Positions 1 through 15,066 of a stretch of 16,489 nucleotides of DNA are shown piece after piece. The notes under the pieces were generated by a model, which saw only the letters and a program-made list of their open reading frames with translations, was not told where the DNA came from and ran no database searches. Both the position numbers and the translations under genes were made by a program. Source of the DNA: Candidatus Heimdallarchaeota archaeon (GTDB lineage: Archaea; Asgardarchaeota; Heimdallarchaeia; Hodarchaeales; Hodarchaeaceae). Position 1 is the stretch's first letter. Each line of letters starts with the position of its first letter. The stretch is from NCBI GenBank assembly GCA_020353515.1, contig CP070695.1, positions 3,092,354 through 3,108,842 on the forward strand. The letters are read 5' to 3'.

Positions 1-159
1 ACGTGGCGAGCGGAGAAATTGCGACGACAGTAAGTATTATAGCTCCCATAGCTAATAAACTTGGACTAGGAGCAACTGGCCTGCTGGTGGAGTGGCAAAA
101 CCTTTATGTCCGAAGGACAATAATGGTTTTAGGGATGGGACTTAAGGCGAGGGAAAGGC
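1..159 (+). repeat. Intergenic structured repeat R0 (left end cut by window edge)
   Basis: Contains core GGAGTGGCAAAACCTTTATGTCCGAAGGACAATAATGGTTTTAGGGATGGGACTTAAGGCGAGG (89-152), shared with R3, R4, R7, R8, R9, R10 and R11. Confidence 0.9.
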
Positions 160-166
160 GATTGAT

Positions 167-484
167 ATGGAATTTAGACCTTGTGGTGCACAGGTTCTTA
201 TTATAATATTTATTTTCTCTATTATCTTAACAATTTTAATAAATTATTTCTATAGAACGGACCTGAAACTTTGGTTACTGATTGGATTGGGATTAGGAAT
301 AATAGGTGGAGTTATATCAACAATATCTTTTATTGCTTTAAATGAACAAATGTGGATTGAAGATGGATCAGAATGTCCCCCAATCAATTTGGGTTTATTC
401 CTCCCAATACTTATTATTCCAACAATTATTCTTATTTTATTCGAGATACTTATTCTTCAAATGAAGAAGAAAAATAAGATATAA
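167..484 (+). CDS. Small hypothetical membrane protein (about 3 TM helices)
   Basis: 105 aa ORF with three hydrophobic stretches and a basic C-terminus; fills the space between R0 and R1. Confidence 0.75.
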   Translation: MEFRPCGAQVLIIIFIFSIILTILINYFYRTDLKLWLLIGLGLGIIGGVISTISFIALNEQMWIEDGSECPPINLGLFLPILIIPTIILILFEILILQMKKKNKI

Positions 485-489
485 GTAGA

Positions 490-785
490 GCCTTTCCCTC
501 GCCCGCTCCGAGCAGAGGGGCAGGGCCCAGCGCAGGAGCGAAATGGTATGGGGAGGTAGGATGCCTCGCTCGGAGTTGCAGGGAAGGCCGTTTGCACGAC
601 GAGTTAGAGGTGGCACCTATAAGAGACGGAAAAACCTCCAATCGCATATTAGCGGGTACAATCTCTGATTGACGCTAGCGAATGTTCGCGGCGAGGTGGT
701 TGGCGAGGGAGTTTGAGCGATAATAATAAATTGTTGCAAAGCGATAAACGACTGAGCCAAGGTTGGGGCTTAAAGGTGAGGAGCA
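490..785 (+). repeat. Intergenic structured repeat R1 (long variant)
   Basis: Starts CCTCGCCCGCTCCGAGCAG and ends GGGGCTTAAAGGTGAGGAGC; 497-605 matches 1450-1558 at 107/109 nt; 755-783 matches 14975-15003 at 26/29 nt. Confidence 0.9.
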
Positions 786-828
786 CATAATTAAAAACAG
801 TGTAGCTATCTTAATATTAAATATTATA

Positions 829-865
829 GAAAGCTTTAAATAGCTAAAATAACTATAATAGTTAT
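829..865 (+). promoter_or_regulatory. Archaeal BRE/TATA promoter and palindromic operator of the TA operon
   Basis: GAAAGC followed by TTTAAATA (835-842) about 30 nt before the ATG at 872; perfect 8-bp inverted repeat ATAACTAT-A-ATAGTTAT (849-865). Confidence 0.65.
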
Positions 866-871
866 GATAAC

Positions 872-1099
872 ATGGGATATAAAACAATTAACGTTGCACC
901 GGAAACATATGAAAGGCTAATTCTATATAAACATGCAGGAATGACTTTCGACGAGGTAATAAATGAAATGATGGATATGATGTCGGAAGAAGAATTTTAT
1001 GAGCATGTAATAGAGGAACATAAAAAGCGCCTCAAGAAAATAAAAGCAGGAGAATATATAGAGGCAAAAGATCTTACCAAAGCCTTAGAAAAGGTTTGA
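872..1099 (+). CDS. Archaeal-type type II antitoxin (VapB/RHH-like N-terminus)
   Basis: KTINVAPETYERL...GMTFDEVINEMM resembles archaeal antitoxins; 75 aa; directly upstream of a RelE-like gene. Confidence 0.75.
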   Translation: MGYKTINVAPETYERLILYKHAGMTFDEVINEMMDMMSEEEFYEHVIEEHKKRLKKIKAGEYIEAKDLTKALEKV

Positions 1100-1108
1100 G
1101 GTGCTTGA

Positions 1109-1399
1109 TTGCCAAAATATCGAATTATTTACGGTAAGGATTTTCTAAAGGATCTTAAAAATATTGTTAAGAGCGGAGATAAAAACGTTATAAGTAAAGC
1201 TGAGCAAATTATAGAGAAATTAAAAATAGATCCACACAAAAAAAGATCCGGGGTAGATATTAAATTAATCTCTTCAAGAAAAGATGCAGTTTATCGAGTT
1301 CGAATCGGAAAATATCGTATGGTTTATGAAATAGATGAGGTTGAAAAGAAGATATTCCTTACTATGATATTTCCACGGGGAAGAGGACGAGGATATTAA
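1109..1399 (+). CDS. RelE/ParE family type II toxin
   Basis: 96 aa, basic; YRIIY..F.KDLK N-terminus and YRVRIGKYRMVYEID motif; TTG start after GAGGTG RBS. Confidence 0.88.
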   Translation: MPKYRIIYGKDFLKDLKNIVKSGDKNVISKAEQIIEKLKIDPHKKRSGVDIKLISSRKDAVYRVRIGKYRMVYEIDEVEKKIFLTMIFPRGRGRGY

Positions 1400-1445
1400 T
1401 AAAGGATTTTCCTGAGATTAATGCCACACTGTTGATTATTAGCTT

Positions 1446-1674
1446 TGCTCCTCGCCCGCTCCGAGCAGGGGGGCAGGGCCCAGCGCAGGAGCGAAATGGT
1501 ATGGGGAGGTCGGATGCCTCGCTCGGAGTTGCAGGGAAGGCCGTTTGCACGACGAGTTGCGATTGGCACAGCTCAGTGACGCTAAAAAGGAGCAATCGCA
1601 TGTGAGCGATAACATTTATCTATGACAAAGCGAATGTTCGGGACGAGGTCATCACTTAAAGGCGAGGCGGCTGG
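1446..1674 (+). repeat. Intergenic structured repeat R2
   Basis: Left 109 nt nearly identical to R1; right part (about 1599-1669) similar to the end of R6 (about 4968-5038); ends CTTAAAGGCGAGG. Confidence 0.9.
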
Positions 1675-1703
1675 ATCTTATAGCTTAAGAGTAAGAAGTT
1701 AAA

Positions 1704-2240
1704 ATGATTAGAGAGAATAGGATGCAAGAAGAATATATTGATGGTATATGGTTTGAAACACCGGAGCGTGTTAATAAATTCTTGAGAGGGTTGATTTATT
1801 CTGACAAAGGTCAGCTGATCCTTCGATCAACCGATATCGCATATATGGGGAAGAAATATCGAATCCAAATGAACTTTATACAAGGTATCTATCTACACAC
1901 ACCCTCTAACCTCTCATCAAAAGGTGTTCCATACATCCGTGTGGATTTCATAAATCAAAATGGCTATCCAGGCATCGCTTTCTTTATGAAAAAGGCCATA
2001 ACAATTTTCGGAGTAATTAAAGAAACAGAAAAACTATTCCATAAACTTCAACAACAATATTACTGGGTAATACAAAAAAATCGATCATCATTCCCACAAC
2101 CACAATTATTCAGTTGCCCTAAATGTCATGCACAAATAGTCTACAGGCAAAATCCCTGTCCTGGATGTGGAGAAACAATACAATGGAAAAACTCTTATGT
2201 CGATAACAGCAACCAGCTGCCTCCCGTTCCGAGCAGGTAG
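1704..2240 (+). CDS. Hypothetical protein with C-terminal zinc ribbon
   Basis: CPKC...CPGC motif; start may be the ATG at 1722; stop codon lies inside R3. Confidence 0.75.
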   Translation: MIRENRMQEEYIDGIWFETPERVNKFLRGLIYSDKGQLILRSTDIAYMGKKYRIQMNFIQGIYLHTPSNLSSKGVPYIRVDFINQNGYPGIAFFMKKAITIFGVIKETEKLFHKLQQQYYWVIQKNRSSFPQPQLFSCPKCHAQIVYRQNPCPGCGETIQWKNSYVDNSNQLPPVPSR

Positions 2241-2329
2241 GGGATGGCTTCAGCGCAGGATGGAGTGGCAAAACCTTTATGTCCTAAGGACAATAATGGT
2301 TTTAGGGATGGGGCTTAAAGGCGAGGAGC
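2213..2329 (+). repeat. Intergenic structured repeat R3 (short variant)
   Basis: 2228-2326 is identical over 99 nt to 5537-5635. Confidence 0.95.
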
Positions 2330-2493
2330 GATATCAACAAAGGCTGTTGTGCCCAATTCAATGTGCATTATTTCATAACTCTAATTGACGATATTTTTAC
2401 GATCGTGCCAAAAAAGATATCTAATTGACTTACAATATATATTTCAAAAAGGGGTACAGGGCTCAATTTAAGGTTAAATAGGTAGCGATAAAT

Positions 2494-3483
2494 ATGAAAG
2501 GATTAAAAATATTCACAGTTGTTATTGTGATAGTATTATTGACTATCACCAGTTGGTATTTTTTCGGACGAGAAACAATTAAAACCGAAGATAACAACAA
2601 TGATTCTACACTTGTTGGGTTAAGTTTTACCGTCGAAGAATATCCAAAAGTCGATGGATCTACATCCACACACCCATTAGAGGTAATCATAGCATGTAGA
2701 TTGCTAAATATATCATATCATGAAACAATTTGGTATGATGGAACAAGACGCATTGTACCGAATGCCTCAGAACCAGGAAAAGAATACATTGCTGAGAATA
2801 TTACAGCGAACATAATCCATCATGGGACACATGACGCGTATGTGAACCTAATTAATGGTACAACCGATTTGATATTAGTTGCTAGATTACCTTCAGAAGA
2901 TGAACTTGCGCTTGCTGATGGAAGAAGTGTGGAACTTGAAGCAAAGCCAATTGCTCTGGATGCTTTTGTATTTATTTTGAATGAAAAGAATCAAATATAC
3001 AATCTAACAATAGAACAGATCCAAGGGATTTATACAGGTGCGATTACCAATTGGAGTGAAGTTGGAGGAAATTATACAGATATCAATCCATATCAAAGAG
3101 ATGAAAATTCTGGAAGCCAGGAACTAATGAAAAGGTTAGTAATGAAAGATTTAGAACTGATCGATTCACCTGATTTGGTCCTATATGGGATGATGGGACC
3201 TATAAATAGATTGAACTGGGATGAAAATGGAATTGGGTATACAGTTTATTACTTCGAAGAATTTATGGCACCCAATGATCATATTAAATTAATCGGAATA
3301 AACGGCTATTATCCAGATTATGAGAATATAAAAACAAAAAAATATCCATTTACGACTGAAGTATATGTAGTAATAAGAAAGGATCTTGATAAAGATAGCA
3401 ATGCATATAAACTCAGAGACTGGCTTCTTTCAGAAGAAGGACAAAGCGTAATTGAAGAAAGTGGTTATGTTCCCGTAAAATAA
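2494..3483 (+). CDS. PstS-like phosphate ABC transporter substrate-binding protein (PBP family), membrane anchored
   Basis: N-terminal TM anchor; DGSTSTHPL, GTHDAY, IALDAFVF, YQRDENSGSQELM and LSEEGQSVIEESGYV motifs. Confidence 0.85.
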   Translation: MKGLKIFTVVIVIVLLTITSWYFFGRETIKTEDNNNDSTLVGLSFTVEEYPKVDGSTSTHPLEVIIACRLLNISYHETIWYDGTRRIVPNASEPGKEYIAENITANIIHHGTHDAYVNLINGTTDLILVARLPSEDELALADGRSVELEAKPIALDAFVFILNEKNQIYNLTIEQIQGIYTGAITNWSEVGGNYTDINPYQRDENSGSQELMKRLVMKDLELIDSPDLVLYGMMGPINRLNWDENGIGYTVYYFEEFMAPNDHIKLIGINGYYPDYENIKTKKYPFTTEVYVVIRKDLDKDSNAYKLRDWLLSEEGQSVIEESGYVPVK

Positions 3484-3507
3484 ACCACCGTTATTGAATT
3501 TAAGCAT

Positions 3508-3662
3508 TCCGAGCAGCTTGGGAATGGCCATTCTCGGATTCCAAAGGAATTTGAGAATTAAGATGACGAGCAAAGCGAGACATCGCTAGCGCAGGACGGA
3601 GTGACAAAACCTTTATGTTCGAAGGACAATAATGGTTTCAGGGTTGGGGCTTGAGGAGGCGA
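3508..3662 (+). repeat. Intergenic structured repeat R4
   Basis: CCGAGCAG start, hairpin modules at 3531-3557 and 3562-3584, the AAAACC/GGTTT core hairpin, and a GGGGCTTGAGGAGGCG end; similar to R8. Confidence 0.9.
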
Positions 3663-3713
3663 CCGCAAATAAAAAATAGATGAACATTAATATATATATA
3701 TTAGGAGGAACCC

Positions 3714-3977
3714 ATGAATTTCGAACCGGATGCTATTATACTACCGAGACTAATCCCTTGGATAGAAAAAAGCAAGCTCCGGATAGCAATATTTGATATT
3801 ATCTCAACCATTATTGGGATTATTTTAATTTACATATGGCTAAAACATTTTTTCATCCCAATCTATGCAGTAAGCTCGATTATTGGTCTTTTTTCAATTA
3901 TCTTGGCTTTAGTGCTTTTAAATGGGAACGAGGAAGATCTTAGCTTAGCCATAATTAAGGCCCCTTCCCACCCTTAG
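3714..3977 (+). CDS. Small hypothetical membrane protein (2 TM)
   Basis: AGGAGG RBS; two hydrophobic segments; stop TAG falls in the start of R5. Confidence 0.7.
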   Translation: MNFEPDAIILPRLIPWIEKSKLRIAIFDIISTIIGIILIYIWLKHFFIPIYAVSSIIGLFSIILALVLLNGNEEDLSLAIIKAPSHP

Positions 3978-4129
3978 CAGGTAGGGGAGTACCGATTGTG
4001 AAAGGCGAGGGCCCGTAGGCAAAAAAGTTACTTCCAGACCAATAGTATTTAATAGGAAAATCCTAGGTGTCTGTAGGTGATAACCAGCAAAACGCAGGAC
4101 GAGATCTTTACTTAAGGATGGCGAATTTC
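3973..4129 (+). repeat. Divergent repeat R5
   Basis: AGCAGGTAGGGGAGTACCGAT (compare R6), AAAGGCGAGG (4001-4010), then CGCAGGACG and CTTAAGGATGGCGA (4111-4124). Confidence 0.7.
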
Positions 4130-4153
4130 ATACAAATATAGGATTGGGACTGT

Positions 4154-4762
4154 ATGAAAAATAAAAAGAAATTGGGTAAAATTTTATTCGACTCTCATCC
4201 GAATAATCCCAAATTTATCTTGACATCGTTTGTATTGATTATTATAGGAGGATCATTGTATTGGTGGGCTGTGTATTTTTTTGACCCAATCATTTACTTT
4301 TTAGGGTTTTTATTAGCGGTTATTGGTACGATTATTCTTATTGTCAATGAATTTATCGGAGGGAAATTCAGATTTAAGATATATCAGGATGGCCTAAAAT
4401 TAGATGTGAATAAATTTGCTGAAGACCCAAGAACTAATCTCACCAGAGGAGAAAAAATTGGAAAAAGAAAAGTGAGATATAATGAAATAGAAAGCATTCA
4501 TCCTTACATGATTAAATCCGAAGTTAATAAGGATTCTATGGGATTACAAATAATATTACCAAAAGAAAAGAATTTTTTTATGGTTGGTGAAATAATATTA
4601 TATGGGAAAGGTATTAAAAGAATGCCAGAAGTAATTAATTATTTAAAGATAAGAATGGGACCATTATGGAAAGATAAATTCAAAAAAGATAAACCAATAT
4701 GGATCGGCGATTTAGATCCGAATAAAATTTCTATGTTTGTAGAATTAGGAGAAACTCCCTGA
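4154..4762 (+). CDS. Hypothetical membrane protein (2 N-terminal TM plus soluble domain)
   Basis: 202 aa ORF with two hydrophobic helices followed by a basic soluble region. Confidence 0.8.
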   Translation: MKNKKKLGKILFDSHPNNPKFILTSFVLIIIGGSLYWWAVYFFDPIIYFLGFLLAVIGTIILIVNEFIGGKFRFKIYQDGLKLDVNKFAEDPRTNLTRGEKIGKRKVRYNEIESIHPYMIKSEVNKDSMGLQIILPKEKNFFMVGEIILYGKGIKRMPEVINYLKIRMGPLWKDKFKKDKPIWIGDLDPNKISMFVELGETP

Positions 4763-4792
4763 TATGAACTAACGAAATTCACGCGACCTGGC

Positions 4793-5038
4793 ACGAGCAG
4801 GTAGTGGAGTACCGATAGTACAGGGTCCATTTTCGGATTTCGAAGAAATTTGAAAACTAAGAGGGCAAGTGAAGCAAGTCCTCGAAGGCGGATTGCAGGA
4901 ATTTCGGTCCCACATCATAGGAAATTCGTGCAAGAGGAGGAAACTTGCTTTCCTCCGAAGGAAATTCCATATGAGCGACAACATTTATTTATGACAAAGC
5001 CAATGCTCAGGACGAGGTTATCACTTAAAGACGAAGCG
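4793..5038 (+). repeat. Intergenic structured repeat R6 (long mosaic variant)
   Basis: CGAGCAGGTAG start; hairpins at 4830-4856 and 4861-4883 are homologous to those in R4/R8; right end is homologous to R2. Confidence 0.85.
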
Positions 5039-5061
5039 AAACCTGAAAAGGAGGTATTCAA

Positions 5062-5493
5062 TTGGATGAAAATATTGTTGGACAAATAACTAAAGCCTAT
5101 ACGACAGCAAAACCCGAATATTTTCGGATCTTTATATCGGCGCAAGATATAATAATCGTGAGTTATGGTGCTTTCACTGGCCATAGTATTGAAGCAATAG
5201 CAATTCAAATGTATAAAGCACGAAAGACTAAACAAAAAGTCGACCAGTTGTTAACACGACAAGATATCTTTCAAAATTTTCCAAATGCACTAGTTCTATC
5301 AAGGAACGATCTACAGCAAATACGATTGAAAAAACAACTTACCGATGCCTTAATTGAATTTGAATTACCACCTTCAAAGGGATTCTTGGGTAAAAAAAGG
5401 AACATTAAAAAGTACGGATTTCCCAAGAATGAATATGAGGACGTAAAAGGAATATTTTCGATCTATTATAACAACATATTATCGGTCAAATGA
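5062..5493 (+). CDS. Hypothetical protein
   Basis: 143 aa; TTG start after GGAGGT RBS; fills the space between R6 and R7. Confidence 0.75.
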   Translation: MDENIVGQITKAYTTAKPEYFRIFISAQDIIIVSYGAFTGHSIEAIAIQMYKARKTKQKVDQLLTRQDIFQNFPNALVLSRNDLQQIRLKKQLTDALIEFELPPSKGFLGKKRNIKKYGFPKNEYEDVKGIFSIYYNNILSVK

Positions 5494-5522
5494 ATTCAAT
5501 TATAAATGTCCAATATAAGAGT

Positions 5523-5638
5523 TGCTCCTCGCCCGCTCCGAGCAGGTAGGGGATGGCTTCAGCGCAGGATGGAGTGGCAAAACCTTTATGTCCTAAGGAC
5601 AATAATGGTTTTAGGGATGGGGCTTAAAGGCGAGGCGA
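5523..5638 (+). repeat. Intergenic structured repeat R7 (short variant)
   Basis: GCTCCTCGCCCGCTCCGAGCAGG...CTTAAAGGCGAGG; 99 nt identical to R3. Confidence 0.95.
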
Positions 5639-5652
5639 TATAAGTAAAGGGG

Positions 5653-6099
5653 TTGGTTGATGATATGCCAAAAGGAGCTTTCGGACAATATATTATAAAA
5701 AATCAGACTGTAGGATCTTTTACCCCATTATACGAGCGCATATTATTTGAATGTAGATTCATAACAAAAGAAAGAACATGGGACGGACAAATCGCTCGTC
5801 ATAAGGCAATGTTCGGTAGTAAAGGCTCATCATTCGCTGTCTCAGCATTTGTCCCCTTCGGCTCATTACTTGAAGAAGGAAATCGATATGGCGCTGAGGC
5901 CGAAATGTATCAGTATGGCCCAGATGTAATCTTGAGGCTTCTTGTGGTTCCTTACATGACATTATTCGATGCCCACGATTATTTTTTATTAACCCAAGGT
6001 GTTTTTGAAAAGATTCTAGACGATGAACGTTGCATGAAGAAATTAGGGGAAATTGTTTACAGGATCATGGCATATAGGGTGCAAATATATACATTTTAA
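5653..6099 (+). CDS. Hypothetical protein
   Basis: 148 aa ORF between R7 and R8; the true start may be the ATG at 5665. Confidence 0.7.
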   Translation: MVDDMPKGAFGQYIIKNQTVGSFTPLYERILFECRFITKERTWDGQIARHKAMFGSKGSSFAVSAFVPFGSLLEEGNRYGAEAEMYQYGPDVILRLLVVPYMTLFDAHDYFLLTQGVFEKILDDERCMKKLGEIVYRIMAYRVQIYTF

Positions 6100-6139
6100 A
6101 AAATATATGGATTATCCATCAACCCCAATAATTATTTGA

Positions 6140-6306
6140 GCTTCGCCCAGTCCAAGTAGGTAGGGGATAACCATTCTCGGATTCCAAAGGAATTTGAGAT
6201 TTAAGATGACGAGCAAAGCGAGACATCGTAAGCGAGGTACGGAGTGGCAAAACCTTTATGTTCGAAGGACAATAATGGTATAAGGGATGGGACTTAAGGA
6301 GGCGAC
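6140..6306 (+). repeat. Intergenic structured repeat R8
   Basis: Same module order as R4 (TTCTCGGATTCC hairpin, GATGACGAGCAAAGCGAGACATC, core hairpin); ends CTTAAGGAGGCG. Confidence 0.9.
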
Positions 6307-6377: not shown

Positions 6378-8297
6378 TTGATAAAGAATCATAAGAAGCG
6401 CTATTCAAAGAAGGTTCTGGCTATCGTTCTAGTGAGCATCATTTTGATTGGAGTGATTGTTGGATTTGGCTACTTTAGAAATTTTTTTATAGAAAAGGCA
6501 GAAGTTCCGGTGTGGGAAGTAGGAGATGCTTGGATTTACAATAGCTCATATCAAGGTGACTTAAGCAAGGGGAGTGATATTGGTATTTTCGTTAGAGAAA
6601 TAACTACATATAAAGACCAAAAATTCTATCAAATATGGGGCCACCTTTATCCAATGTTTGATAAAAGTTGGGTATCTGCAGACGATCTCAATCCTATAAA
6701 ATTGGAGGATTTTGAAAATGGCACCTTTTCTGAGACCGATAAACCCTTTAATTTTCCTCTTTACAAGGGCAAAAAATGGGATTTCACAACCCAAAATAAT
6801 CATACTTACAGGTACATTGTCGAATCACAAGGAGATATAAAGGTTCTTGGTGGCACCTTCAATTCATTTAAAATTCGTAAGACTGAAGGAAATAAAACGA
6901 AGTCGATTACATATTTTTCTCCTAAGGTACGAAACATAGTAAAAATGATCATTTATAATGATGATCCAGATGATTATTATATATACCAATTCAAATCCTT
7001 TTATAACGAACCATTCGAAAGATTGATAGATACACAAAAATTGGATAATAGATACAATGCAACACTTGAGATATGGGAAGAAAAATACTCACCTGTCCAT
7101 GATTGGGTGATAAAATATAGGGTGTCCTATACAAAAAACGGCCAGAATTTTACAGCACGCTTCGATGAGACCACAAAATTTTGTTTGGATTGGATAAAAA
7201 ACAATACAAATGAAGAGGATAAAATCCTCTGTTGGTGGGATTATGGACATGAGATTCAGGGTTATACAGGAAGAGAAGTGGTAATTGACGGACCCAGTGC
7301 CAGATTATGGGATACAATTATGGAACCGTGGACAATCAAAAATTGGAATAAAGAAAGTGATGTTGTAAATGTTTCAAGAGCTTTGGTGGGGACACCAGAA
7401 GACACCATTGAAGTGATGAATCAATATAATGCAACTTTATTATATATTAAAAGCAGAGAACTGGCATTATCTGCACGGGATACAGGTATTTTTTATTCAC
7501 TTGTTAAAGGAGCAAAAAGAAACCTTGATGATTATTATGAAGTTTTTGTGTTTACATCTTCTGGAGATAAGATCAATGTAAACCAGGTAAAGGATTTTCA
7601 ATCCATAACAATAGTTAGTTATGAAATAGAATTTAAAAAGGCCTATTACGACTCGATGATATGTAAAGCAAGATTCGGATACTCCGGTGATGATATCTCA
7701 CCTAATGGGGACCTAGATGGACTTCCTGCCTTATCAGAGGATCTTTATCATTATCCAATTAAGCCATGCTGGAACTTGACAAACTTCAAGGTGATCTTTA
7801 GGACTGCCATGTGGAATCCTTATCCCTTAGAAGATTATGAAAACCACTCTGAAGGTTGGCAACCAATGGAGTATCTAGATGCAATTGATAAGAAAAACTC
7901 GAAAGAAGGTATCTCAGACCTTAGTGATAGGTTCAATCTCAACTCAGGGAATATAATGTTGAGATATTTTGATGGGGCAATACTAAAGGGTAAGATCCTT
8001 TATGAGAATAGCACCTCTGCAGAGGGAGTTAACATTACTGTCACTGATGAATATGGTGTTCCTCATAAAATAAATCAAACAGATGGTTATGGTAACTACT
8101 CTTTAATTGTACCCTTTGGTAATATTACAATCACTATTTCCGAGGGGGAAATGGACAGAATGACCTTAATCGGGGATACGCTGTTGGAAACGAACTTGAC
8201 TGTTGAATTATACCAGGCAACAAGGGAAGAGGTCGATCTCGATAAGGATGGCCATTTTGATTACTATATTTTTAAGGACTTCGAAATATCCACTTAA
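6378..8297 (+). CDS. Membrane-anchored protein containing an AglB/STT3 C-terminal-like domain and a carboxypeptidase-regulatory-like beta domain
   Basis: Single N-terminal TM; WIKNNT...ILCWWDYGHEI motif; C-terminal GVNITVTDEYGVPH...TDGYGNYSLIVPFG; lacks the multi-TM STT3 region; TTG start uncertain. Confidence 0.75.
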   Translation: MIKNHKKRYSKKVLAIVLVSIILIGVIVGFGYFRNFFIEKAEVPVWEVGDAWIYNSSYQGDLSKGSDIGIFVREITTYKDQKFYQIWGHLYPMFDKSWVSADDLNPIKLEDFENGTFSETDKPFNFPLYKGKKWDFTTQNNHTYRYIVESQGDIKVLGGTFNSFKIRKTEGNKTKSITYFSPKVRNIVKMIIYNDDPDDYYIYQFKSFYNEPFERLIDTQKLDNRYNATLEIWEEKYSPVHDWVIKYRVSYTKNGQNFTARFDETTKFCLDWIKNNTNEEDKILCWWDYGHEIQGYTGREVVIDGPSARLWDTIMEPWTIKNWNKESDVVNVSRALVGTPEDTIEVMNQYNATLLYIKSRELALSARDTGIFYSLVKGAKRNLDDYYEVFVFTSSGDKINVNQVKDFQSITIVSYEIEFKKAYYDSMICKARFGYSGDDISPNGDLDGLPALSEDLYHYPIKPCWNLTNFKVIFRTAMWNPYPLEDYENHSEGWQPMEYLDAIDKKNSKEGISDLSDRFNLNSGNIMLRYFDGAILKGKILYENSTSAEGVNITVTDEYGVPHKINQTDGYGNYSLIVPFGNITITISEGEMDRMTLIGDTLLETNLTVELYQATREEVDLDKDGHFDYYIFKDFEIST

Positions 8298-8327
8298 TGA
8301 AAAATTGGTAGAGTAGTCTACTACGTG

Positions 8328-8418
8328 CCGAGTAGAAGAGGGATGGCTTCGGCGCAGGATGGGTGGGAAAACCTTTATGTCCGAAGGACGATAATGGTTT
8401 TAAGGGATGGGACATAAG
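8328..8418 (+). repeat. Degenerate repeat R9
   Basis: CCGAGTAG...GGATGGCTTCGGCGCAGGATGG...AAAACCTTTATGTCCGAAGGACGATAATGGTTTT...GGGATGGGAC; terminal GGCGAGG is missing. Confidence 0.85.
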
Positions 8419-8450
8419 AACCAGTGTACCAAGAAAAAGAGGTTATGTTT

Positions 8451-8879
8451 ATGGAAAAATTGAAAGCTGAATTGGTGGCGCCTTGTGGTATGAATTGTGG
8501 TTTATGTTCAGGTTATCTGGCTTTATCTAGGGGATTGGAGAAAAAGCGTGGGATCACACATTGTAAAGGATGTCGTCCACGTGGTAAGATGTGTGCATTT
8601 GTGAAAAAAAGATGTGAGAAAGTAAGAAAAAACCAGGTGGAATTCTGCTTTGAATGCAAGGAATTTCCATGTGAATCAATTACAAAGCTGGATAAACGCT
8701 ATCAGAAGAATTACAATTACAGTTTCATTGAAAATCTCAAGTATATAAAAGAACATGGAATACAGGATTTTTTAGAAATGGAAGAAAAAAAATACAAATG
8801 CAAGAATTGTGGTGACATCAAGTGTATCCACAATGGCAAATGTTACAGTTGCCAAACGATCACCACATGGCGAGGATAA
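8451..8879 (+). CDS. DUF3795-like Cys-rich (putative Fe-S/Zn) protein
   Basis: APCGMNCGLC, CKGCR, FCFECKEFPC motifs; GAGGT RBS favours the ATG at 8451 over the GTG at 8424. Confidence 0.82.
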   Translation: MEKLKAELVAPCGMNCGLCSGYLALSRGLEKKRGITHCKGCRPRGKMCAFVKKRCEKVRKNQVEFCFECKEFPCESITKLDKRYQKNYNYSFIENLKYIKEHGIQDFLEMEEKKYKCKNCGDIKCIHNGKCYSCQTITTWRG

Positions 8880-8955
8880 ACATAAATGGATTATAGTCAG
8901 TTTACTTAAAAAAAAGCGGTGAACGGAAATCAAAAAAGGCTGGAGGTATGAAAAT

Positions 8956-9606
8956 ATGGAAATCGTTTTACACAACTCAATAAGTCTAGATGGTTCATTA
9001 ACCCACTTTGATATTGATATGGGTCAACATTATCAAATAGCTGGTGAATATAAAGCGGATGCGAACCTGATAGGCTCAAATACTATTAAAACAGGTGTTG
9101 AGCTTTATGGTGAAGCACCACCAGAGGAAAGCAATGATTTTAAGAAACCTGAAAGAGATAAAAATCTTCCTAATTGGGTAATAATCGATACAAAAGGAAT
9201 TCTACAGGGATTGCTACATGAAGTCAGAAGATTTGAATTTTGTAAAGATGTTATCATCCTGATATCACGAGAAACTCCTGAACAGTACATTAAATATTTA
9301 ACGGAGAGGAATTATGATTATCATGTTGTTGGTAACAAAAAAGTTGACATCGAAAAAGCACTTGATCTTCTCTCGGAAAAATATGATGTAAGTTCAATAT
9401 TGGTTGATACAGGCAGCACATTGGGAAACATCTTATTAAAGAAAAGATTGGTAACAAAGATCAGTATTTTAGTGCATCCAATTATTGTTGGCAGTAAATC
9501 ACATAATATGTTTAGGAATATCGATGCAAATATAAAATTAAAATTATTAAGTAGCAAAACATTGGGTGATAATAATATCCTGTTAGTGTATGAACCAATT
9601 TACTAG
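8956..9606 (+). CDS. RibD C-terminal / dihydrofolate reductase family protein
   Basis: HNSISLDG, D.NLIGSNT, VIIDTKG, ILVDTGSTL and HPIIVG motifs; GGAGGT RBS. Confidence 0.85.
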   Translation: MEIVLHNSISLDGSLTHFDIDMGQHYQIAGEYKADANLIGSNTIKTGVELYGEAPPEESNDFKKPERDKNLPNWVIIDTKGILQGLLHEVRRFEFCKDVIILISRETPEQYIKYLTERNYDYHVVGNKKVDIEKALDLLSEKYDVSSILVDTGSTLGNILLKKRLVTKISILVHPIIVGSKSHNMFRNIDANIKLKLLSSKTLGDNNILLVYEPIY

Positions 9607-9639
9607 TAAAGTGATTTAAGGCGGTAAGGGTGTAAATAT

Positions 9640-9834
9640 ATGAAATCCATACCTGAAGATATTGCCTTACAAATTTGTGAGCAGATTAGAGAGGAAAAGG
9701 GGGTTAGATTATTTAGCCAGTGTTGGGGATGTGTTAAATTCTCTAAAGGCGATGGAAAGAAAATGTGTTTTTATGATCCTCCTAATAATTGGGGATGCAA
9801 ACTTGTCAACAAGCAATATGATCGGCAATCCTGA
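9640..9834 (+). CDS. Small Cys-rich hypothetical protein
   Basis: 64 aa with CWGC plus three further Cys; co-oriented with the upstream genes. Confidence 0.6.
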   Translation: MKSIPEDIALQICEQIREEKGVRLFSQCWGCVKFSKGDGKKMCFYDPPNNWGCKLVNKQYDRQS

Positions 9835-9927
9835 ACCCCTGAGCCGCCTTTGATTTTGATTGCTATTACCGTTACAGTACATATTCTTTCATTTCGAACT
9901 TTGAAGCAAAGAAAAAAAAGTATATAA

Positions 9928-11442
9928 TTATGATGTCGCTTTTACACGCTCCTCATGTGCCATATTGGCCAATTTTTCGATTTCTTTTTTATCCAATTTG
10001 AGTCCTTCAGCCACTCTGCGGCCATATTCAGGGTCTGCCTTGAAAAAGAGGGCTGTCTGTCGAAGTTGTATACGCTTTTGTGCTCCACCTAGATGATCAA
10101 CGATATTACCTATTAGATTCTCGCGGTCCTGATCTGTCATCACATCACGATACAGATTCCCAGGTTGAACAAAATCATCGTTGGGATATGTATACGGAAA
10201 ACGATCCGCCTCTCCAGAAATTTCGAAAGGAGGCTCCTTTGCAGAAATGTCCGGTTCTGGGCCCCCGAAGCTGTTTGGCCAGAAATTTGGGCCTTTACCT
10301 CCACCAGTATCGGTACGCATAAATCCATCGCGTTGATAGCTCATCTCAGGTGCATTTTTAGGAGCATTTACCGGAATCAAGTGATAGTTCGGTCCAAGTC
10401 TATGGATATGGGTATCGTGATATGAAAAAAGACGAGCTTGTAACATCTTATCAGGTGAGGCGGCAATACCAGGTACCAGATTCCCCGGGCAGAATGCAGC
10501 CTGCTCAACCTCAGCAAAGTAATTCTCAGGGTTGCGGTTCAAAACCAGTTTGCCCACCTCGATCGGTGGATAGTCACCATGTGGCCAGACTTTTGTGATA
10601 TCAAAGATATCAAAACGGTAATCTTTAGCTTCCTCAGGTTTCATTATCTGCATCTGTAAGGTCCATGATGGGTAATCTCCCCGCTCGATGGCATCATAGA
10701 GATCCCTTGTGGCATGGTCTGGGTCTTTGCTGCGCATAATCGCTGCTTCCTGTCGAGTAAGATTTTTAATTCCCTGATCTGTCTTAAAATGATACTGCAC
10801 CCAAAAATATTCGCCTTTCTCGTTGTACCACTTAAAAGTGTGACTGCTATAGCCATTCATGTTTCGATACGTTGCTGGAATCCCACGATCGGAAAAGAGA
10901 ATGGTTACCTGGTGAATTGATTCAGGTGTCAGGGAAAGGAAATCCCAGAACATATCCGGATCCTTACAATTGGTAGCAGGGTTTCGCTTCTGTGTGTGTA
11001 TGAAGTCTGGAAATTTTAATGGATCGCGTATAAAGAAAACTGGTGTATTATTTCCGACAAAATCGTAGTTACCTTCTTCGGTATAGAACTTCACTGCAAA
11101 TCCTCGTGGATCACGCTCGGCATCAGCTGAACCCTTTTCTCCTCCCACGGTGGAGAAGCGGGCAAATACCTCGGTTCGTTTACCAACCTCAGAAAGGAAC
11201 TTGGCCTTGGTGTACTTTGTAACATCCGCGGTAACCTCAAAGTACCCATACGCACCGGCCCCCTTTGCGTGCACTACACGCTCAGGGATACGCTCACGAT
11301 CGAAATGACCTAACTTCTCCAGCAGATGAACATCCTGCATCAGAACAGGGCCTCGTTTCCCTGCAGTAAGGCTGTTCTGGTCATCACCAACTGGTATTCC
11401 AAAAGCTGTGGTTAATTTCTTTTTCTGTTTCTTATCGCTCAT
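9928..11442 (-). CDS. katA: Monofunctional heme catalase (small subunit)
   Basis: [15 protein letters not shown] active-site motif, [26 protein letters not shown] and the RLFSYHDTH heme-ligand motif; GGAGGT RBS on the - strand (11448-11453). Confidence 0.97.
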
Positions 11443-11501
11443 GTTAAACCTCCCACTTAAACTGGATTAAAATTTAGCTGATAAACCTAACTGACAAGTA
11501 G

Positions 11502-11516
11502 CATATAAATTTTTTT
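11502..11516 (-). promoter_or_regulatory. Putative BRE/TATA promoter of catalase
   Basis: Minus strand reads AAAAAAA-TTTATATG about 60 nt upstream of the catalase ATG. Confidence 0.5.
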
Positions 11517-11577
11517 GTGTTACCGCTTTGAGTAAATGTATTGAGTTTTCAAAAAACTCAAAAACCCTTTTTTCACC

Positions 11578-11640
11578 GTAGCAAAACCTTTATCCTCGTA
11601 AAGAGTTATTGGTTTTAGGGATGGGGCTTGAGGAGGCGAG
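11578..11640 (+). repeat. Partial repeat R10 (right half only)
   Basis: GCAAAACCTTTAT-CCTCGTAAAGAG-TTATTGGTTTTAGGGATGGGGCTTGAGGAGGCG; no CCGAGCAGG left end. Confidence 0.85.
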
Positions 11641-11681
11641 AAGCTTATTCCTTTATATCGAGAAGTGGGAGAGGATAATAA

Positions 11682-12362
11682 ATGACCAAATATCTCTTTA
11701 ATCAGAGTCTAGGAAAAACAGTTGATGCAGTCAACGAAGCCTATTTTTTTGGACGGGCCATTCCAAAATCAGAAAAGGTTAATGTAGCAAAATGGATTGC
11801 GAATCGTCAAGGATTACCAAATTCATATGCAAATATGTTTGCACCAACTGAAAAAGATCTAAAAGAAGGTGTTGTTCTCTTTACTGGAGAAAAAATTGGA
11901 TCATATGTTGCAACTCGTCATATTCTTGGAGAAGAAGCTTGTCGAGCATTGATTCTTTTAGATGTTCATTCAGCTGAAGTAAATAAAGCACTAAAACAGG
12001 CAAGAGAAGGAATAGAACAAAAATTATCTGAACACTGGACTGAGGGAGTATATTGTTGTGGGAATTGTACAGTTGCTCTATGGCACCATTTAACTGTGGG
12101 TGGGCTTGAATATTCGGAAAACTTTATTGATCTAGGAATAAAAGCTCTGAAAAAACATCGAGATGGCAAAGGAAGATGGAGACGCTTTCCTTTCTATTAT
12201 ACTCTTCTGGTATTAAATGATCTTGAAGATAAGTATGCTGACGAGGAAATTCATTATGCGTCAAAAGGATGTGAAAGATTATTAAATAGAAAAACAAAAG
12301 AAGATAATATTTCAAAACGGCGTAAGGTTTTGCTTCAAAAAGTTCTAGAAAAAATAGAATAA
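11682..12362 (+). CDS. Hypothetical protein
   Basis: 226 aa; GAGAGG RBS; YCCGNC and DGKGRWRRFPFYYTL motifs; function not recognised. Confidence 0.8.
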   Translation: MTKYLFNQSLGKTVDAVNEAYFFGRAIPKSEKVNVAKWIANRQGLPNSYANMFAPTEKDLKEGVVLFTGEKIGSYVATRHILGEEACRALILLDVHSAEVNKALKQAREGIEQKLSEHWTEGVYCCGNCTVALWHHLTVGGLEYSENFIDLGIKALKKHRDGKGRWRRFPFYYTLLVLNDLEDKYADEEIHYASKGCERLLNRKTKEDNISKRRKVLLQKVLEKIE

Positions 12363-12462
12363 TTAATTGAATAGATAAGAAGGCTATATGCCCTATTCGA
12401 ATATATAATATTAAAAAGAAGAACTAGTAGTTGTAAACTTATGAAAACGAGAAGATGAATAA

Positions 12463-13257
12463 ATGAAAGTAAGCAAGTGTTTCAAACGCAAAATTCTTAA
12501 TCCTTGCAATTTAGAGATGTACAATTATCAAATGGATCCGTATATCGGTTGTGAACATTTTTGCAATTATTGTTACGCATTAAACGAAGCGGAAACAGAT
12601 TGGGAAAAAGAAATAATGATTCATGAGGAGTTTATTGAACGATTGTCTCAAGCGTTATCTAAAATAGAACCTCAGACCATCTATATAGGAGTGGATACCG
12701 ATCCATACCAGCCATCCGAGAGTTCCTTTAAACAGACCGGAAAATTATTGGAATTATTCGAAAAAAGAGGTTTCTCAGTCTGTATTCTAACCAAATCGGG
12801 ATTGGTAACAAGAGATATTGATCTTTATACAAAAATGCCGGCTTCCTCTGTGGGAATTTCAATCGCCTTTCAAAATGAACAAACTCGGAATCTGTTTGAA
12901 AAAAGCGCACCCCCGAACAAGGAAAGAATAGAAGCTCTTGAAAAATTGAAAAAAGTAGGTATCGACACTTATACTTTGATTTCCCCTGTAATGCCTTTCA
13001 TTACCGATGTAGAATCACTGATTGAAGCCGTGGTACCATTCTCAAACACCATTTGGATTTATAGACTTCAAATTGAATCAGAGGAATCACCAAACTGGTA
13101 TAATATTCAATCCATTTTAAATAGGCATTTTCCAGATTTAACGGAACAGTATCGTGAGATAGCATTTTCAGAGGATCATCCTTTTTGGTTGGAATTAAGA
13201 CAACAGCTAAAAGAAATTCAAAGTAAAAAGGATTTAAATTTGAAAATAGAATTATGA
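12463..13257 (+). CDS. Radical SAM protein, spore photoproduct lyase (SplB)-like family
   Basis: DPYIGCEHFCNYCYA (CxxxCxxC), TDPYQPSE and LTKS motifs. Confidence 0.9.
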   Translation: MKVSKCFKRKILNPCNLEMYNYQMDPYIGCEHFCNYCYALNEAETDWEKEIMIHEEFIERLSQALSKIEPQTIYIGVDTDPYQPSESSFKQTGKLLELFEKRGFSVCILTKSGLVTRDIDLYTKMPASSVGISIAFQNEQTRNLFEKSAPPNKERIEALEKLKKVGIDTYTLISPVMPFITDVESLIEAVVPFSNTIWIYRLQIESEESPNWYNIQSILNRHFPDLTEQYREIAFSEDHPFWLELRQQLKEIQSKKDLNLKIEL

Positions 13258-13286
13258 TGATAAGAGAAGTGAGTCATCACTGGCAA

Positions 13287-13359
13287 AGGACGGAGTAGCA
13301 AAACCTTTATCCCCAAAGGACAATAATGATTTTTAGGGCGGGCTTTAAAGGCGAGGAGC
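13287..13359 (+). repeat. Partial/degenerate repeat R11
   Basis: AGGACGGAGTAGCAAAACCTTTATCCCCAAAGGACAATAATG...TTAAAGGCGAGGAGC. Confidence 0.85.
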
Positions 13360-13444
13360 TATAATAACAATGGTTGTTTGCCCGAATAGAATGTGCCTGA
13401 AAAAGGTTGGCGGTTAGATCTTCAGATAGAGGAGGACCATTAAA

Positions 13445-14257
13445 ATGCCTCCCGATAAAAGGAAAAATTCTGTTAATAAAATCAATGTTGAGCCGGATTT
13501 AATAAATAGTATTGGTATGAAATTTAAACTTATTCCTGCAGGAAGGTTTTTAATGGGACAAAAGGACATAGCCGAACCTGTACATGAAGTAAATATCACA
13601 AAGCCATATTATATGGGTATGTATCCTGTGACACAACATGAATGGGAAACGATAATGGACGATAACCCAAGTGATATCCAAAGAGAAGATTTTCCAGTTG
13701 TTAATATCTCTTGGTATGATTGTCAAGAATTCATACAGAAATTGAATGGGATAGAATTTAATCAGGAAAAGAAATCATACAAATATCGTCTTCCCACCGA
13801 AGCTGAATGGGAATATGCATGCAGAGCTGGAAGTAAATCTCTGTTCTATTTTGATCATAAAAAAGAAGATCAAGATGATTATATATGGCATTTTAAGAAC
13901 TCAGAAGTTACCCAGGAAGTATATACTGAAAAAGGAGTTCTTGAAAAAAAGTTGGTTAAAATTAAAAAGACAGGAAGAATGATCCATCCAGTTGGACAAC
14001 TAAAACCAAATAAATTTGGACTTTTCGATATGCACGGAAATGTATATGAGTGGTGTGAAGATTGGTATTGTGACTATGTCAAAGATAAATTAATTGATCC
14101 AATAGGGAGTCCAAAAGGTATTAAAGTCCGGAGCAAGATGTTTCGAGGAGGGAGTTGTATGAATTTTGCAGGATATGGTGCTTCGGCTCACAGAGATTCT
14201 CGTATACCAAGTTATCGAAGTGAAGTTGTTGGAGTTAGAATAGTGAGGGAATTATAG
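13445..14257 (+). CDS. Formylglycine-generating enzyme (SUMF1/FGE-sulfatase) domain protein
   Basis: IPAGRFLMG, YPVTQ, RLPTEAEWEYACRAG, NKFGLFDMHGNVYEW and RGGS motifs; GAGGAGG RBS. Confidence 0.92.
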   Translation: MPPDKRKNSVNKINVEPDLINSIGMKFKLIPAGRFLMGQKDIAEPVHEVNITKPYYMGMYPVTQHEWETIMDDNPSDIQREDFPVVNISWYDCQEFIQKLNGIEFNQEKKSYKYRLPTEAEWEYACRAGSKSLFYFDHKKEDQDDYIWHFKNSEVTQEVYTEKGVLEKKLVKIKKTGRMIHPVGQLKPNKFGLFDMHGNVYEWCEDWYCDYVKDKLIDPIGSPKGIKVRSKMFRGGSCMNFAGYGASAHRDSRIPSYRSEVVGVRIVREL

Positions 14258-14266
14258 AATATAAAG

Positions 14267-14402
14267 CGTTCCGAGCGTGTAGAGGAAGGCAATTCTTGGA
14301 TTCTGAGGGAAATTGAGAATTAAGATGATGAGCAAAGCGATTGCACAATAGGACGAAAGATTTAAAGAATATAAAATCATATTGAGGAAGACTGGGCCGA
14401 GG
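14267..14402 (+). repeat. Degenerate repeat R12
   Basis: CGTTCCGAGC start; ATTCTTGGATTCTGAGGGAAATTGAGAATTAAGATGATGAGCAAAGCGA is homologous to the R4/R8 modules; right end is poorly conserved. Confidence 0.75.
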
Positions 14403-14428
14403 TTAGAACTAATTTCGGGGAAAATAAT

Positions 14429-14941
14429 ATGAAAATAAGACAGGAACAAAAAAGTGACCACAAAAAAGTTTATGAGATCACCAAGCAAGCATTCGGTCAG
14501 GAGAATGAAAGCAAACTGATCGAAAAAATCAGAGTCGGTGGGTGCTTTGTTCCTGAGCTTTCATTGGTAGCTGAGTTAGATGATGAAATTGTGGGACATA
14601 TTCTCTTTTCTAAAATAAAGATAATTGGCGAAGATGAACACGAATCACTTGCCCTTGCTCCGATGGCCGTTGTTCCAAAACTTCAAAAACAGGGAATTGG
14701 AAGTGAATTGGTAAATACTGGACTCGAAATTGCAAAGAAACTTGGTTTTGATTCCGTCATCGTTGTGGGACACGAAGAATATTACCCAAGATTTGGATTT
14801 GAAAAGGCTTCGAAATGGGGTATAAAGTGCCCATTTGAGGTGCCGGATGAAGCATTTATGGCAATTGAACTCGTTGAGAATTCTTTGAAAGGTAAGGGAG
14901 GAACTGTTCAGTATCCCAAAGAGTTTATGGAAGCTGAATAG
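14429..14941 (+). CDS. GNAT N-acetyltransferase (YhbS-like)
   Basis: IVGHILFS, LAPMAVVPKLQKQGIGSEL and VVGHEEYYPRFGF motifs. Confidence 0.93.
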   Translation: MKIRQEQKSDHKKVYEITKQAFGQENESKLIEKIRVGGCFVPELSLVAELDDEIVGHILFSKIKIIGEDEHESLALAPMAVVPKLQKQGIGSELVNTGLEIAKKLGFDSVIVVGHEEYYPRFGFEKASKWGIKCPFEVPDEAFMAIELVENSLKGKGGTVQYPKEFMEAE

Positions 14942-14974
14942 AACAGGGCATGGATATCATTGAATGGAGCGTTT

Positions 14975-15003
14975 AGCCAAGGCTAGGGCTTGAAGGTGAG
15001 GAG
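14975..15003 (+). repeat. Remnant repeat R13 (right end only)
   Basis: AGCCAAGGCTAGGGCTTGAAGGTGAGGAG; 26/29 identical to the end of R1. Confidence 0.75.
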
Positions 15004-15066
15004 TAAAAAATAATATAAGGCTGTTAGCCAGTCTCCTATGTATAATATTAAAAATTAAAAGGGGAA

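Follow-up and report, generated by a model that had tools for sequence, protein, structure and literature searches.

How are genes gathered into an ordered array where neither of the two parts that define an integron is found? This question is raised by a 16,489-nt stretch of DNA from a Candidatus Heimdallarchaeota archaeon (CP070695.1, positions 3,092,354-3,108,842; G000:C1 in our labelling, with G000 denoting the 4.94-Mb source genome), hereafter referred to as the window. Here, ~14 same-strand copies of a modular, GC-rich repeat, termed R (R0-R13), form one array and are separated by AT-rich, mostly plus-strand genes. Our analysis indicates that the array is probably integron-like, built of gene cassettes whose sites are not of the attC type and whose closing stem is cassette-specific and split between the two cassette ends.

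Complementary arms bracket genes of the array

An initial annotation of the window had proposed that each gene is bracketed by its own inverted repeat, the end of one R copy being complementary to the start of the next across the intervening gene. The arm sequences quoted there are all present at the positions assigned to them. The arms of cassette 1 (146-159 and 490-503) are complementary at 14 of 14 positions, the only match count that had been given. The other pairs contain one or two mismatches, namely 775-785 with 1446-1456 (10/11, one T.G), 796-806 with 1423-1433 (10/11), 1664-1674 with 2213-2223 (10/11, one G.T), 5629-5636 with 6140-6147 (7/8), and 5649-5661 with 6114-6126 (11/13); the exception is 4123-4129 with 4774-4780, listed as a weaker match, which pairs at 7/7 positions. 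In the following, X and X' designate the left and right arms of a cassette, and hairpin F is a hairpin of the R 3' module. The array starts immediately behind an upstream TPR gene and comprises, up to R9:

1-144, plus strand: R0, 3' part of the first repeat, with hairpin F, ending in GGGACTTA (nhmmer and 3'-module alignment)
146-159, plus strand: X1, left arm of cassette 1, GGCGAGGGAAAGGC
167-484, plus strand: cassette 1 gene, 105 aa, hydrophobic-looking by eye, without Pfam family
490-503, plus strand: X1', right arm of cassette 1, pairs with X1
504-772, plus strand: R1, long form, 269 nt, CGCTCCGAGCAG ... GGGGCTTA; folds with X1'/X1 as closing stem
775-806, plus strand: X2, left arm of the toxin-antitoxin cassette, helices 775-785 and 796-806; gapped alignment to the reverse complement of 1423-1456, score 25
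872-1399, plus strand: cassette 2 cargo, antitoxin (872-1099; DUF7557, with a VapB-like match below the Pfam cut-off) and ParE-family toxin (1109-1399; Pfam)
1423-1456, plus strand: X2', right arm of cassette 2, pairs with X2
1457-1658, plus strand: R2, 202 nt, type B, whose 3' module lacks hairpin F
1664-1692, plus strand: X3, left arm of cassette 3, pairs with 2191-2223, score 22
1704-2240, plus strand: cassette 3 gene, 178 aa, C-terminally zinc-ribbon-like
2191-2223, plus strand: X3', right arm of cassette 3, within the coding sequence
2225-2317, plus strand: R3, minimal form, 93 nt
2313 with 3499 (GCTTAAA/TTTAAGC) and 2334 with 3488 (TCAACAAAGG/CCGTTATTGA): cassette 4 arms, with a 14-nt bulge; own flank first in folding rank
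2494-3483, plus strand: cassette 4 gene, periplasmic-binding protein (PBP)-like 2 substrate-binding protein
3505-3653, plus strand: R4, 149 nt
3714-3977, plus strand: cassette 5 gene, 87 aa, no family; weak bracket
3969-4114, plus strand: R5, 146 nt, diverged
4123-4129, plus strand: X6 core, left arm of cassette 6, GAATTTC
4154-4762, plus strand: cassette 6 gene, 202 aa, no family
4774-4780, plus strand: X6' core, GAAATTC
4788-5027, plus strand: R6, 240 nt
5062-5493, plus strand: cassette 7 gene, 143 aa; weak bracket (9/13)
5534-5626, plus strand: R7, minimal form, 93 nt, near-identical to R3
5629-5664, plus strand: X8, left arm of cassette 8, helices 5629-5636 and 5649-5661, pairs with 6114-6147, score 21
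5653-6099, plus strand: cassette 8 gene, 148 aa, no family
6114-6147, plus strand: X8', right arm of cassette 8, pairs with X8
6148-6296, plus strand: R8, 149 nt
6378-8297, plus strand: cassette 9 gene, 639 aa, weak STT3/AglB-core match and CarboxypepD_reg; no clear bracket
8324-8415, plus strand: R9, 92 nt, degenerate 3' end

Brackets are present in cassettes 1, 2, 3, 6, and 8, whereas cassette 4 is bracketed only with the 14-nt bulge and pairing is weak in cassettes 5, 7, and 9. In cassettes 2, 3, and 8, the arms reach 29-35 nt of imperfect pairing. The gapped score of cassette 6 (19) stems from another segment, 4127-4141, and not from the X6 core.

We scored Smith-Waterman complementarity between the 55 nt after the repeat 3' ends and the 55 nt before the 5' starts in all 9 x 9 combinations. 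Flanks of the same gene reach a mean of 18.3, compared with 13.0 ± 2.5 for all other pairs (permutation p = 1e-5). The initial annotation would have been given up if this advantage had vanished upon masking of the shared GGCGAGG/CCTCGCC core; with the core masked, same-gene pairs score 14.8 versus 12.0 (p = 0.003). The signal is carried mainly by cassettes 1, 2, 3, 6, and 8. The two flanks of one and the same repeat score 12.25 on average, which equals background. Same-gene bracketing is confirmed as a real property of the array.

The repeat is modular and is predicted to fold with the arms of its own cassette

Between its first (C(G/A)(C/T)TCCGAGCAGG) and its last (GGGGCTTA) conserved base, R spans 92 to 269 nt, with short forms of 92-93 nt (R3, R7, and R9), mid-size forms of 146-149 nt (R4, R5, and R8), and the long forms R2, R6, and R1 (202, 240, and 269 nt). 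Inserted modules distinguish long from short copies, and 5' and 3' modules are found in several combinations. A genome-wide search finds R in this one array and nowhere else in the source genome. R is GC-rich in an AT-rich genome, and Rfam returns no match at E<=1 across the whole window.

Most R copies share a conserved hairpin. Hairpin F in the 3' module consists of AAACC/GGTTT, TTAT/ATAA, and an apical stem. Its base is nearly invariant, and the apical stem shows compensatory exchanges (GTCC/GGAC, CCTC/GAGA, and CTCT/AGAG in 11, 10, and 4 of 42 copies, respectively). Stem mismatches are too few for an asymmetry between G.T and A.C to indicate the folding strand, and hairpin F shows no such asymmetry.

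Each R was folded with its own 5' flank and each of the nine 3' flanks using single-stranded DNA parameters. For five of eight repeats (R1, R2, R3, R4, and R8), the X of its own cassette yields the most stable reconstituted site, a number of first ranks for which we estimate a chance probability of <1e-3. The own X is superior to the 3' flank present in the array by 3-6 kcal/mol, and in these folds X'/X closes the whole repeat.

The bracket recurs with other sequences in distant archaeal genomes

The repeat family is also present in genomes titled Thermoplasmata or Methanomassiliicoccales archaeon, as revealed by a pattern scan and BLAST: G041 (CBDUXN01), G042 (CP070751.1), G043 (CP070739.1), and G044 (JAZGAR01). 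The first pattern was too loose and yielded mostly chance matches; BLAST filtering left six true loci. The family also occurs in G045, a close relative of G041-G044, but in no more than 1 of 36 further relatives. At least four arrays reside in G042. A stricter pattern matches two short Joint Genome Institute (JGI) metagenome contigs and none of the viral contigs, and BLAST does not find the repeat in 40 relatives of the source genome, 21 of them of the same genus. Within open-access text, we found no description of the repeat family or of HUH-associated cassette arrays.

Related arrays show the same bracket formed by other sequences, as in GGAGGCGGCGAGTT/AACTCGCCGCCTCC, GGAGACATCGGTT/AACCGATGTCTCC, GGAGGTGGCAAC/GTTGCCACCTCC, and GGGTGGATTTAC/GTAAATCCACCC. 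Fourteen non-redundant cassettes carry perfect 10-15-nt partners separated by 270-860 nt, with a right arm that in every case directly adjoins the 5' start of the next repeat and a left arm that begins 0-3 nt after CTTA; nothing pairs outside the stem. The core is only semi-conserved and covaries between the arms (GGAGGCG/CGCCTCC versus GGAGGTG/CACCTCC). As the bracket recurs with new sequences, it is a property of the family and not a chance feature of the window. One junction between two repeats in G042 carries no cargo and consists of CTTGAAGGCGAGGAA, a 15-nt loop, and TTCCTCGCCTT, which form an 11-bp stem (~20,600-20,700, reverse of L127+L128). It represents either an "empty cassette" or an unfilled hairpin.

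Cassette homology begins sharply at the 3' edge of the repeat

A two-gene cassette common to the loci L133 (G042), L139 (G041), and L144 (G044) is 85-91% identical and is preceded by unrelated repeat bodies, which in L133 lacks the hairpin module and in L139 contains it. Similarity starts abruptly behind CTTAAAG, with GCGAGGCGAAGGCG, and continues between L133 and L139 for ~300 nt downstream through the next repeat. This is in line with the initial suggestion that gene plus flanks form the mobile unit, and follows its proposal to map the crossover by means of one cassette in several contexts. Further, an alignment of 42 R 3' modules is conserved up to the terminal block shared with R1, where several unrelated continuations begin. 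The alignments support a left crossover at the 3' edge of the repeat, comparable to that between G and TTRRRY in integrons. The crossover, previously placed within what had been taken as the repeat, thus maps directly behind CTTA and just 5' of the GGCGAGG core, so that core and extension travel with the downstream gene. The site would then belong to the preceding gene and be crossed at its 3' edge, which is the integron arrangement.

Cassettes of the window are shared with these distant genomes. An 81% identical copy of the cassette 2 toxin-antitoxin pair, including an almost unchanged promoter-like stretch, is found in a G042 array, and G042 also holds an 80% identical copy of cassette 5. 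The catalase segment of the window (9849-11509, minus strand) is 90.6% identical in DNA over 1.66 kb to L141 3627-5286 of a G041 array, and its flanks differ between the two genomes on both sides; it appears to have been transferred recently from one distant lineage to another. TATA-like boxes are found in the interval from X to the start codon, e.g., TTTAAATA, located 31 nt before the ATG at 872 and kept in the G042 copy. Judged from this sequence arrangement, X is therefore probably outside the transcript of its own cassette.

A separate rearrangement is seen in L144 at ~2816 (G044:C128), where the stop region of the shared cassette, ACAATAAT, is fused directly to the ATAATGGTTTTAGGG part of the 3' module. 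It appears to be a deletion at an 8-nt microhomology by which the rest of the repeat was lost.

A model of cassette exchange through a split closing stem

In our model, a cassette would consist of the left arm X, cargo with its own promoter, the right arm X', and the folded repeat R, with site-specific cutting and joining directly behind CTTA at the repeat's 3' edge. Within the array, X(i) would stand behind R(i-1), and X'(i) and R(i) behind the gene; to close R(i), only 5-7 bp would then be available, between the semi-conserved portions of X'(i) and X(i+1). Once a cassette is excised as a single-stranded circle, X'(i) and X(i) would pair over their full length and close R into one long stem-loop. 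Alternatively, pairing of X(i) with X'(i) in a single-stranded array could loop out the gene and bring the CTTA of R(i-1) next to R(i) in its folded state. In either case, the stem would identify the two matching ends of a cassette, and circles could thereby re-insert more readily than cassettes are lost from arrays. The model would account for stems that differ from cassette to cassette, are mostly perfect, and stop abruptly at R. The sequences show the brackets, the boundary, the conserved structure in R, and the sharing of cassettes; the intermediate (single-stranded or circular), the enzyme, and the direction of the bias are inferred.

Paired Y1 genes accompany some related arrays

The integron integrase profile TIGR02249 stays below cut-off in five array genomes (source genome and G041-G044), where its matches are Xer-like and split around the insertion. 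The source genome contains two PF00589 genes, at 0.74 and 2.22 Mb, with the array at 3.09 Mb. In closed G042 (5.2 Mb), PF00589 matches two short fragments only, and no intact Xer-type gene was detected.

Y1_Tnp genes occur in five of five array-bearing genomes (G041-G045; 4-17 copies) versus 13 of 36 array-free relatives (1-4 copies), and by our tally from match positions about half of them have a repeat within 5 kb. They form adjacent pairs of two paralogue classes, A and B, both with an intact HUH motif and a C-terminal Tyr (L139 (G041:C1) 12440-13787; L153 25-948; L156 1920-3261; L151 6531-7461). Known TnpA enzymes act as homodimers; the two-class pairs suggest a heterodimer. The pairs are usually antisense to the array, within multi-kb cassettes bracketed by the conserved arms AAGGAGGGGATTGTC/GACAATCCCCTCCTT. 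In G042, one pair directly precedes ...GTGACTTAAAG, ending in CTTAAAG, which is followed by a bracketed cassette (GGAGACCACC/GGTGGTCTCC) and a repeat, a layout that recalls intI-attI-cassette in integrons. With 72-86% identity among them, the Y1 genes are diverged and not recent insertion sequence (IS) copies. When open reading frames (ORFs) of all loci are clustered, surface proteins (beta-helix/PKD, beta-propeller) and Y1 are the only conserved array-adjacent genes. We tentatively regard the IS200-like Y1 (HUH) paralogue pair as the most likely enzyme, as a candidate only; a tyrosine recombinase acting in trans is the alternative.

Two further ideas were rejected. R is not a miniature of the G042 IS200, as the canonical 660-bp element has unrelated ends. 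A TnpB/omega-RNA system with R as scaffold and X as guide was dismissed, since no TnpB or other known nuclease is encoded by the ORFs beside the Y1 pairs.

Several observations concern the surroundings of the Y1 genes. Some cassettes share a ~85-nt conserved leader behind CTTA, comprising a GAAATGGCAT...GCCATTTC hairpin and then ...AAGGAGGGGATTGTCG, whose arm pairs with GACAATCCCCTCCTT before the next repeat. These are multi-kb cassettes, several with Y1 pairs; the leader (L139 reverse, ~3160-3245 and ~8870-8945) is found in G041, G042, and G044 and is absent from the source genome. ORFs of 341-451 aa without Pfam family adjoin Y1 genes in G041 and G045 (L155 3796-6733; L156 4254-6664) and are not similar to each other by BLASTP. 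In G043, L152 (1-3600) contains a tandem repeat with a ~320-nt period upstream of the Y1 pair, which looks coding and is unrelated to the array.

Cargo, distal decay, and origin of the array

Past ~8.4 kb, the array is decayed, with partial repeats only and no brackets found:

8424-15003, plus strand: decayed distal array with partial R10 (11569-11640), R11 (13283-13356), R12 (14260-14345), and R13 (14960-15003)

According to Pfam, the cargo comprises a ParE toxin with antitoxin, a PBP-like binding protein, an AglB/STT3-like protein, and several small family-less proteins, and in the decayed part DUF3795, RibD_C, a minus-strand catalase, radical SAM, FGE-sulfatase, and GNAT. The oligosaccharyltransferase-like gene (6378-8297) is an unusual cassette cargo. 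The ORF 1704-2240 reads through its own X3' and stops within R3, so that part of a recombination-site stem is coding. Local hairpins, CAACAaaggcTGTTG, AACAAtggTTGTT, and GGCTgttAGCC, are located at 2334-2348, 13364-13378, and 15010-15020, 15-23 nt behind CTTA. The three cassettes concerned, behind the ends of R3, R11, and R13, also have mutually similar leaders, which may represent a shared leader module.

Repeat modules of the window are up to 99% identical over 67 nt to modules of G041, while G041-G045 lie outside the 40 nearest relatives of the source genome (down to the same class), and vice versa. The upstream TPR gene has orthologues in genomes of the same genus (88% identity in G011), with repeat-free ordinary DNA behind it. 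On the far side of the array, no synteny exists with the relatives carrying this orthologue, and the inserted block could not be delimited. The tetranucleotide make-up of the array deviates by ~2.8 standard deviations from the genome mean. In the source run, the depth of unique cassette genes is even and similar to the flank, which argues against gross misassembly. The simplest reading is that the array or its cassettes were horizontally acquired from a Thermoplasmata-labelled lineage and that the distal part then decayed. As the source genome lacks the Y1/HUH pairs that sit in or beside related arrays, its array is probably an orphan acquired by transfer and decaying at the far end.

Discussion

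The array shares its architecture with integrons and clusters of attC sites lacking integron integrases (CALINs), including archaeal ones (Ghaly et al, 2022, PMC9668308), which likewise are one-directional arrays of mostly single-gene cassettes. An imperfectly palindromic site with a predicted fold follows each gene, the crossover is at its 3' edge, and the bases behind are part of the next cassette and complementary to the start of the latter's own site, as in attC. The cargo resembles that of sedentary integrons, being rich in toxin-antitoxin pairs, acetyltransferases, and small proteins of no known function (here also small membrane proteins), and orphan arrays without integrase occur among integrons, too. 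In contrast to attC, the sites are modular, up to 269 nt long, and devoid of R''/R' boxes, and the 6-nt semi-conserved TTRRRY is replaced by a variable paired part of 10-15 nt or more. This bears out the initial comparison with R''/R' pairing that is longer and of other sequence. Moreover, the cassettes seem to carry their own promoters, and in place of IntI only Y1/HUH recombinase-type genes are enriched at related arrays.

Other mobile elements share single traits. Like IS200/IS605 elements, palindrome-associated transposable elements (PATEs), and repetitive extragenic palindromes (REPs) with their RAYT transposases, the sites seem to have strand-specific folded ends composed of a hairpin, ~15 nt, and a boundary (hairpin F ... 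GGGATGGGGCTTA). As in IS200/IS605, insertion apparently occurs behind a fixed short sequence without target duplication, and Y1 HUH genes are physically associated in the related genomes. However, IS200/IS605 elements have separate, similar hairpins at each end, whereas here the two arms of a cassette pair with each other over the cargo and only the 3' module of R looks like a right end. IS200/IS605 elements contain a transposase, alone or with TnpB, and not arbitrary cargo, and they are not known to be ordered head to tail in cassette arrays; the present Y1 genes are two adjacent paralogues with no TnpB nearby. Xer-dependent pdif modules and integrative mobile elements exploiting Xer (IMEXs) likewise involve site-bounded gene modules that reassort between replicons, with a non-IntI or housekeeping recombinase assumed. 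Yet pdif modules are bounded by inverted 28-bp XerC/D sites, whereas the present sites stand in direct orientation, are long and folded, and show no dif-like core. The archaeal bulge-helix-bulge (BHB), a 4-bp helix with two 3-nt bulges, does not occur in the perfect, unbulged 10-15-bp stems. Thus, the system works like an integron but lacks key features by which integrons, IS200/IS605 elements, miniature inverted-repeat transposable elements (MITEs), and BHB processing are recognized.

Besides the integron-like reading, which we consider the probable one with the initial interpretation supported, four other explanations have to be weighed. The array could consist of tandem repeats with short perfect palindromes, into whose centre genes or X-gene-X' units with terminal inverted repeats were inserted, leaving R outside the cassette and making the X/R junction on either side a breakpoint. 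The cargo-less G042 junction, metagenome contigs in which ...GGCGAGG is joined directly to CTCCTCGCC..., and the mostly perfect stems with abrupt ends on both sides would fit, as would the finding that one shared cassette has a different R downstream and another a different R upstream. However, the L133/L139 homology runs through the downstream repeat as expected of an R that moves together with the upstream gene, an integron-like array would predict an empty cassette just as well, and insertion into hairpin loops has no known enzyme or precedent, so that we regard this explanation as unlikely. Slightly less likely still is an element acting at the RNA level, with R as a structured RNA in read-through transcripts and X/X' as long-range stems for processing, circularisation, or stabilisation. 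It would account for units on one strand only, a covarying hairpin in R, GC-rich repeats in an AT-rich genome, and the G.T nature, on the sense strand, of three of the four mismatches in the quoted 8-11-nt arm pairs (the two of the 13-nt pair being unclassified). In turn, it is opposed by the missing BHB geometry, with a perfect 14-bp stem in cassette 1 and nothing paired outside the stems, by the TATA-like boxes between X and the start codons, and by the lack of an Rfam family match, and it leaves the sharp recombination boundary and the cross-lineage cassette sharing unexplained.

Repeated, gene-independent insertion of R as a MITE, PATE, or REP-like element into palindromic intergenic targets, e.g., terminators, is very improbable. 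It is true that the conserved segments flanking one repeat, from X'(i) and X(i+1), make up a short palindrome (CCTCGCC...GGCGAGG), and Y1 transposases, the movers of PATEs and REPs, are enriched in array genomes. Yet the variable arms pair across the gene and not across the repeat, where scores remain at background, as the initial annotation had argued against independent MITE insertion; the ends of the canonical G042 IS200 are unrelated, and the repeats in the source genome are confined to one array rather than dispersed. The same-repeat versus same-gene comparison largely refutes this explanation. To an ordinary CALIN served by a canonical IntI, we assign the smallest probability of all. Architecture, cargo, and the minimal site size (93 nt) fit, and integrons and CALINs are reported in Asgard and Thermoplasmatota archaea (PMC9668308), but GTTRRRY is found at 0 of 12 3' ends and RYYYAAC at 0 of 10 5' ends, no TIGR02249 match exceeds the cut-off in the five array genomes, and the R motifs do not appear in the parts of the supplementary tables of PMC9668308 available to us.

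Several findings weigh against the integron-like reading itself. Four of the nine window cassettes have weak or no brackets, and the mostly perfect stems could simply reflect how cassettes are made, without having been selected as structures. In a second shared cassette (L133/L134), X' and the first ~25 nt of the repeat are retained and a different body follows, hence repeat bodies also reassort, either by homologous exchange between conserved blocks or with the right-hand junction as a second breakpoint. This means that R is sometimes passed on without the gene before it, or else that its bodies undergo recombination with one another. In the assembled contigs, whose joints are ambiguous, no circular junction, excision joint, or presence/absence polymorphism is demonstrated. 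Contigs assembled from runs do contain many repeat-end joints (e.g., 1667 to 5525, 1659 to 2219, and 5638 to 4827), which we did not count as evidence of excision or circles, given short sides of 19-37 nt and a possible origin from other community arrays. The source genome has no Y1 gene (PF01797), no integron integrase, and no tyrosine recombinase near the array. Finally, the Y1 link is incomplete: four large G042 arrays have no Y1 inside, and one G043 pair lies off-array, at 2.10 Mb, where the neighbouring "repeats" are a protein-coding tandem repeat and no array exists.

A more far-reaching version of the integron-like reading, which we put forward only as a speculative possibility and hold to be less likely than the array reading itself, is a gene-capture platform in which a heterodimeric Y1 (HUH) pair replaces the tyrosine-recombinase integrase. 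Cassettes would be excised as single-stranded circles and pasted behind CTTA, X/X' would close the folded site and juxtapose the two cut sites whatever the length of the cargo, and cassettes would move between distant archaeal lineages.

Integrons are the textbook gene-collecting device of prokaryotes, defined by one integrase family and one type of site. On paper, the array described here does the job of an integron, with ordered cassettes, an edge crossover, and exchange across distant lineages, but neither of these parts is present. With the split stem, cassette boundaries can be set to the base and the sequence of each circular junction can be predicted; the stem also suggests how the ends of a long single-stranded cassette meet. 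If the paired Y1 enzymes are responsible, folded single-stranded sites would have been put to use for gene capture at least twice in evolution, by enzymes unrelated to each other, and the system would also provide a route for gene flow into Asgard archaea, whose imports of bacterial and archaeal genes draw wide interest.

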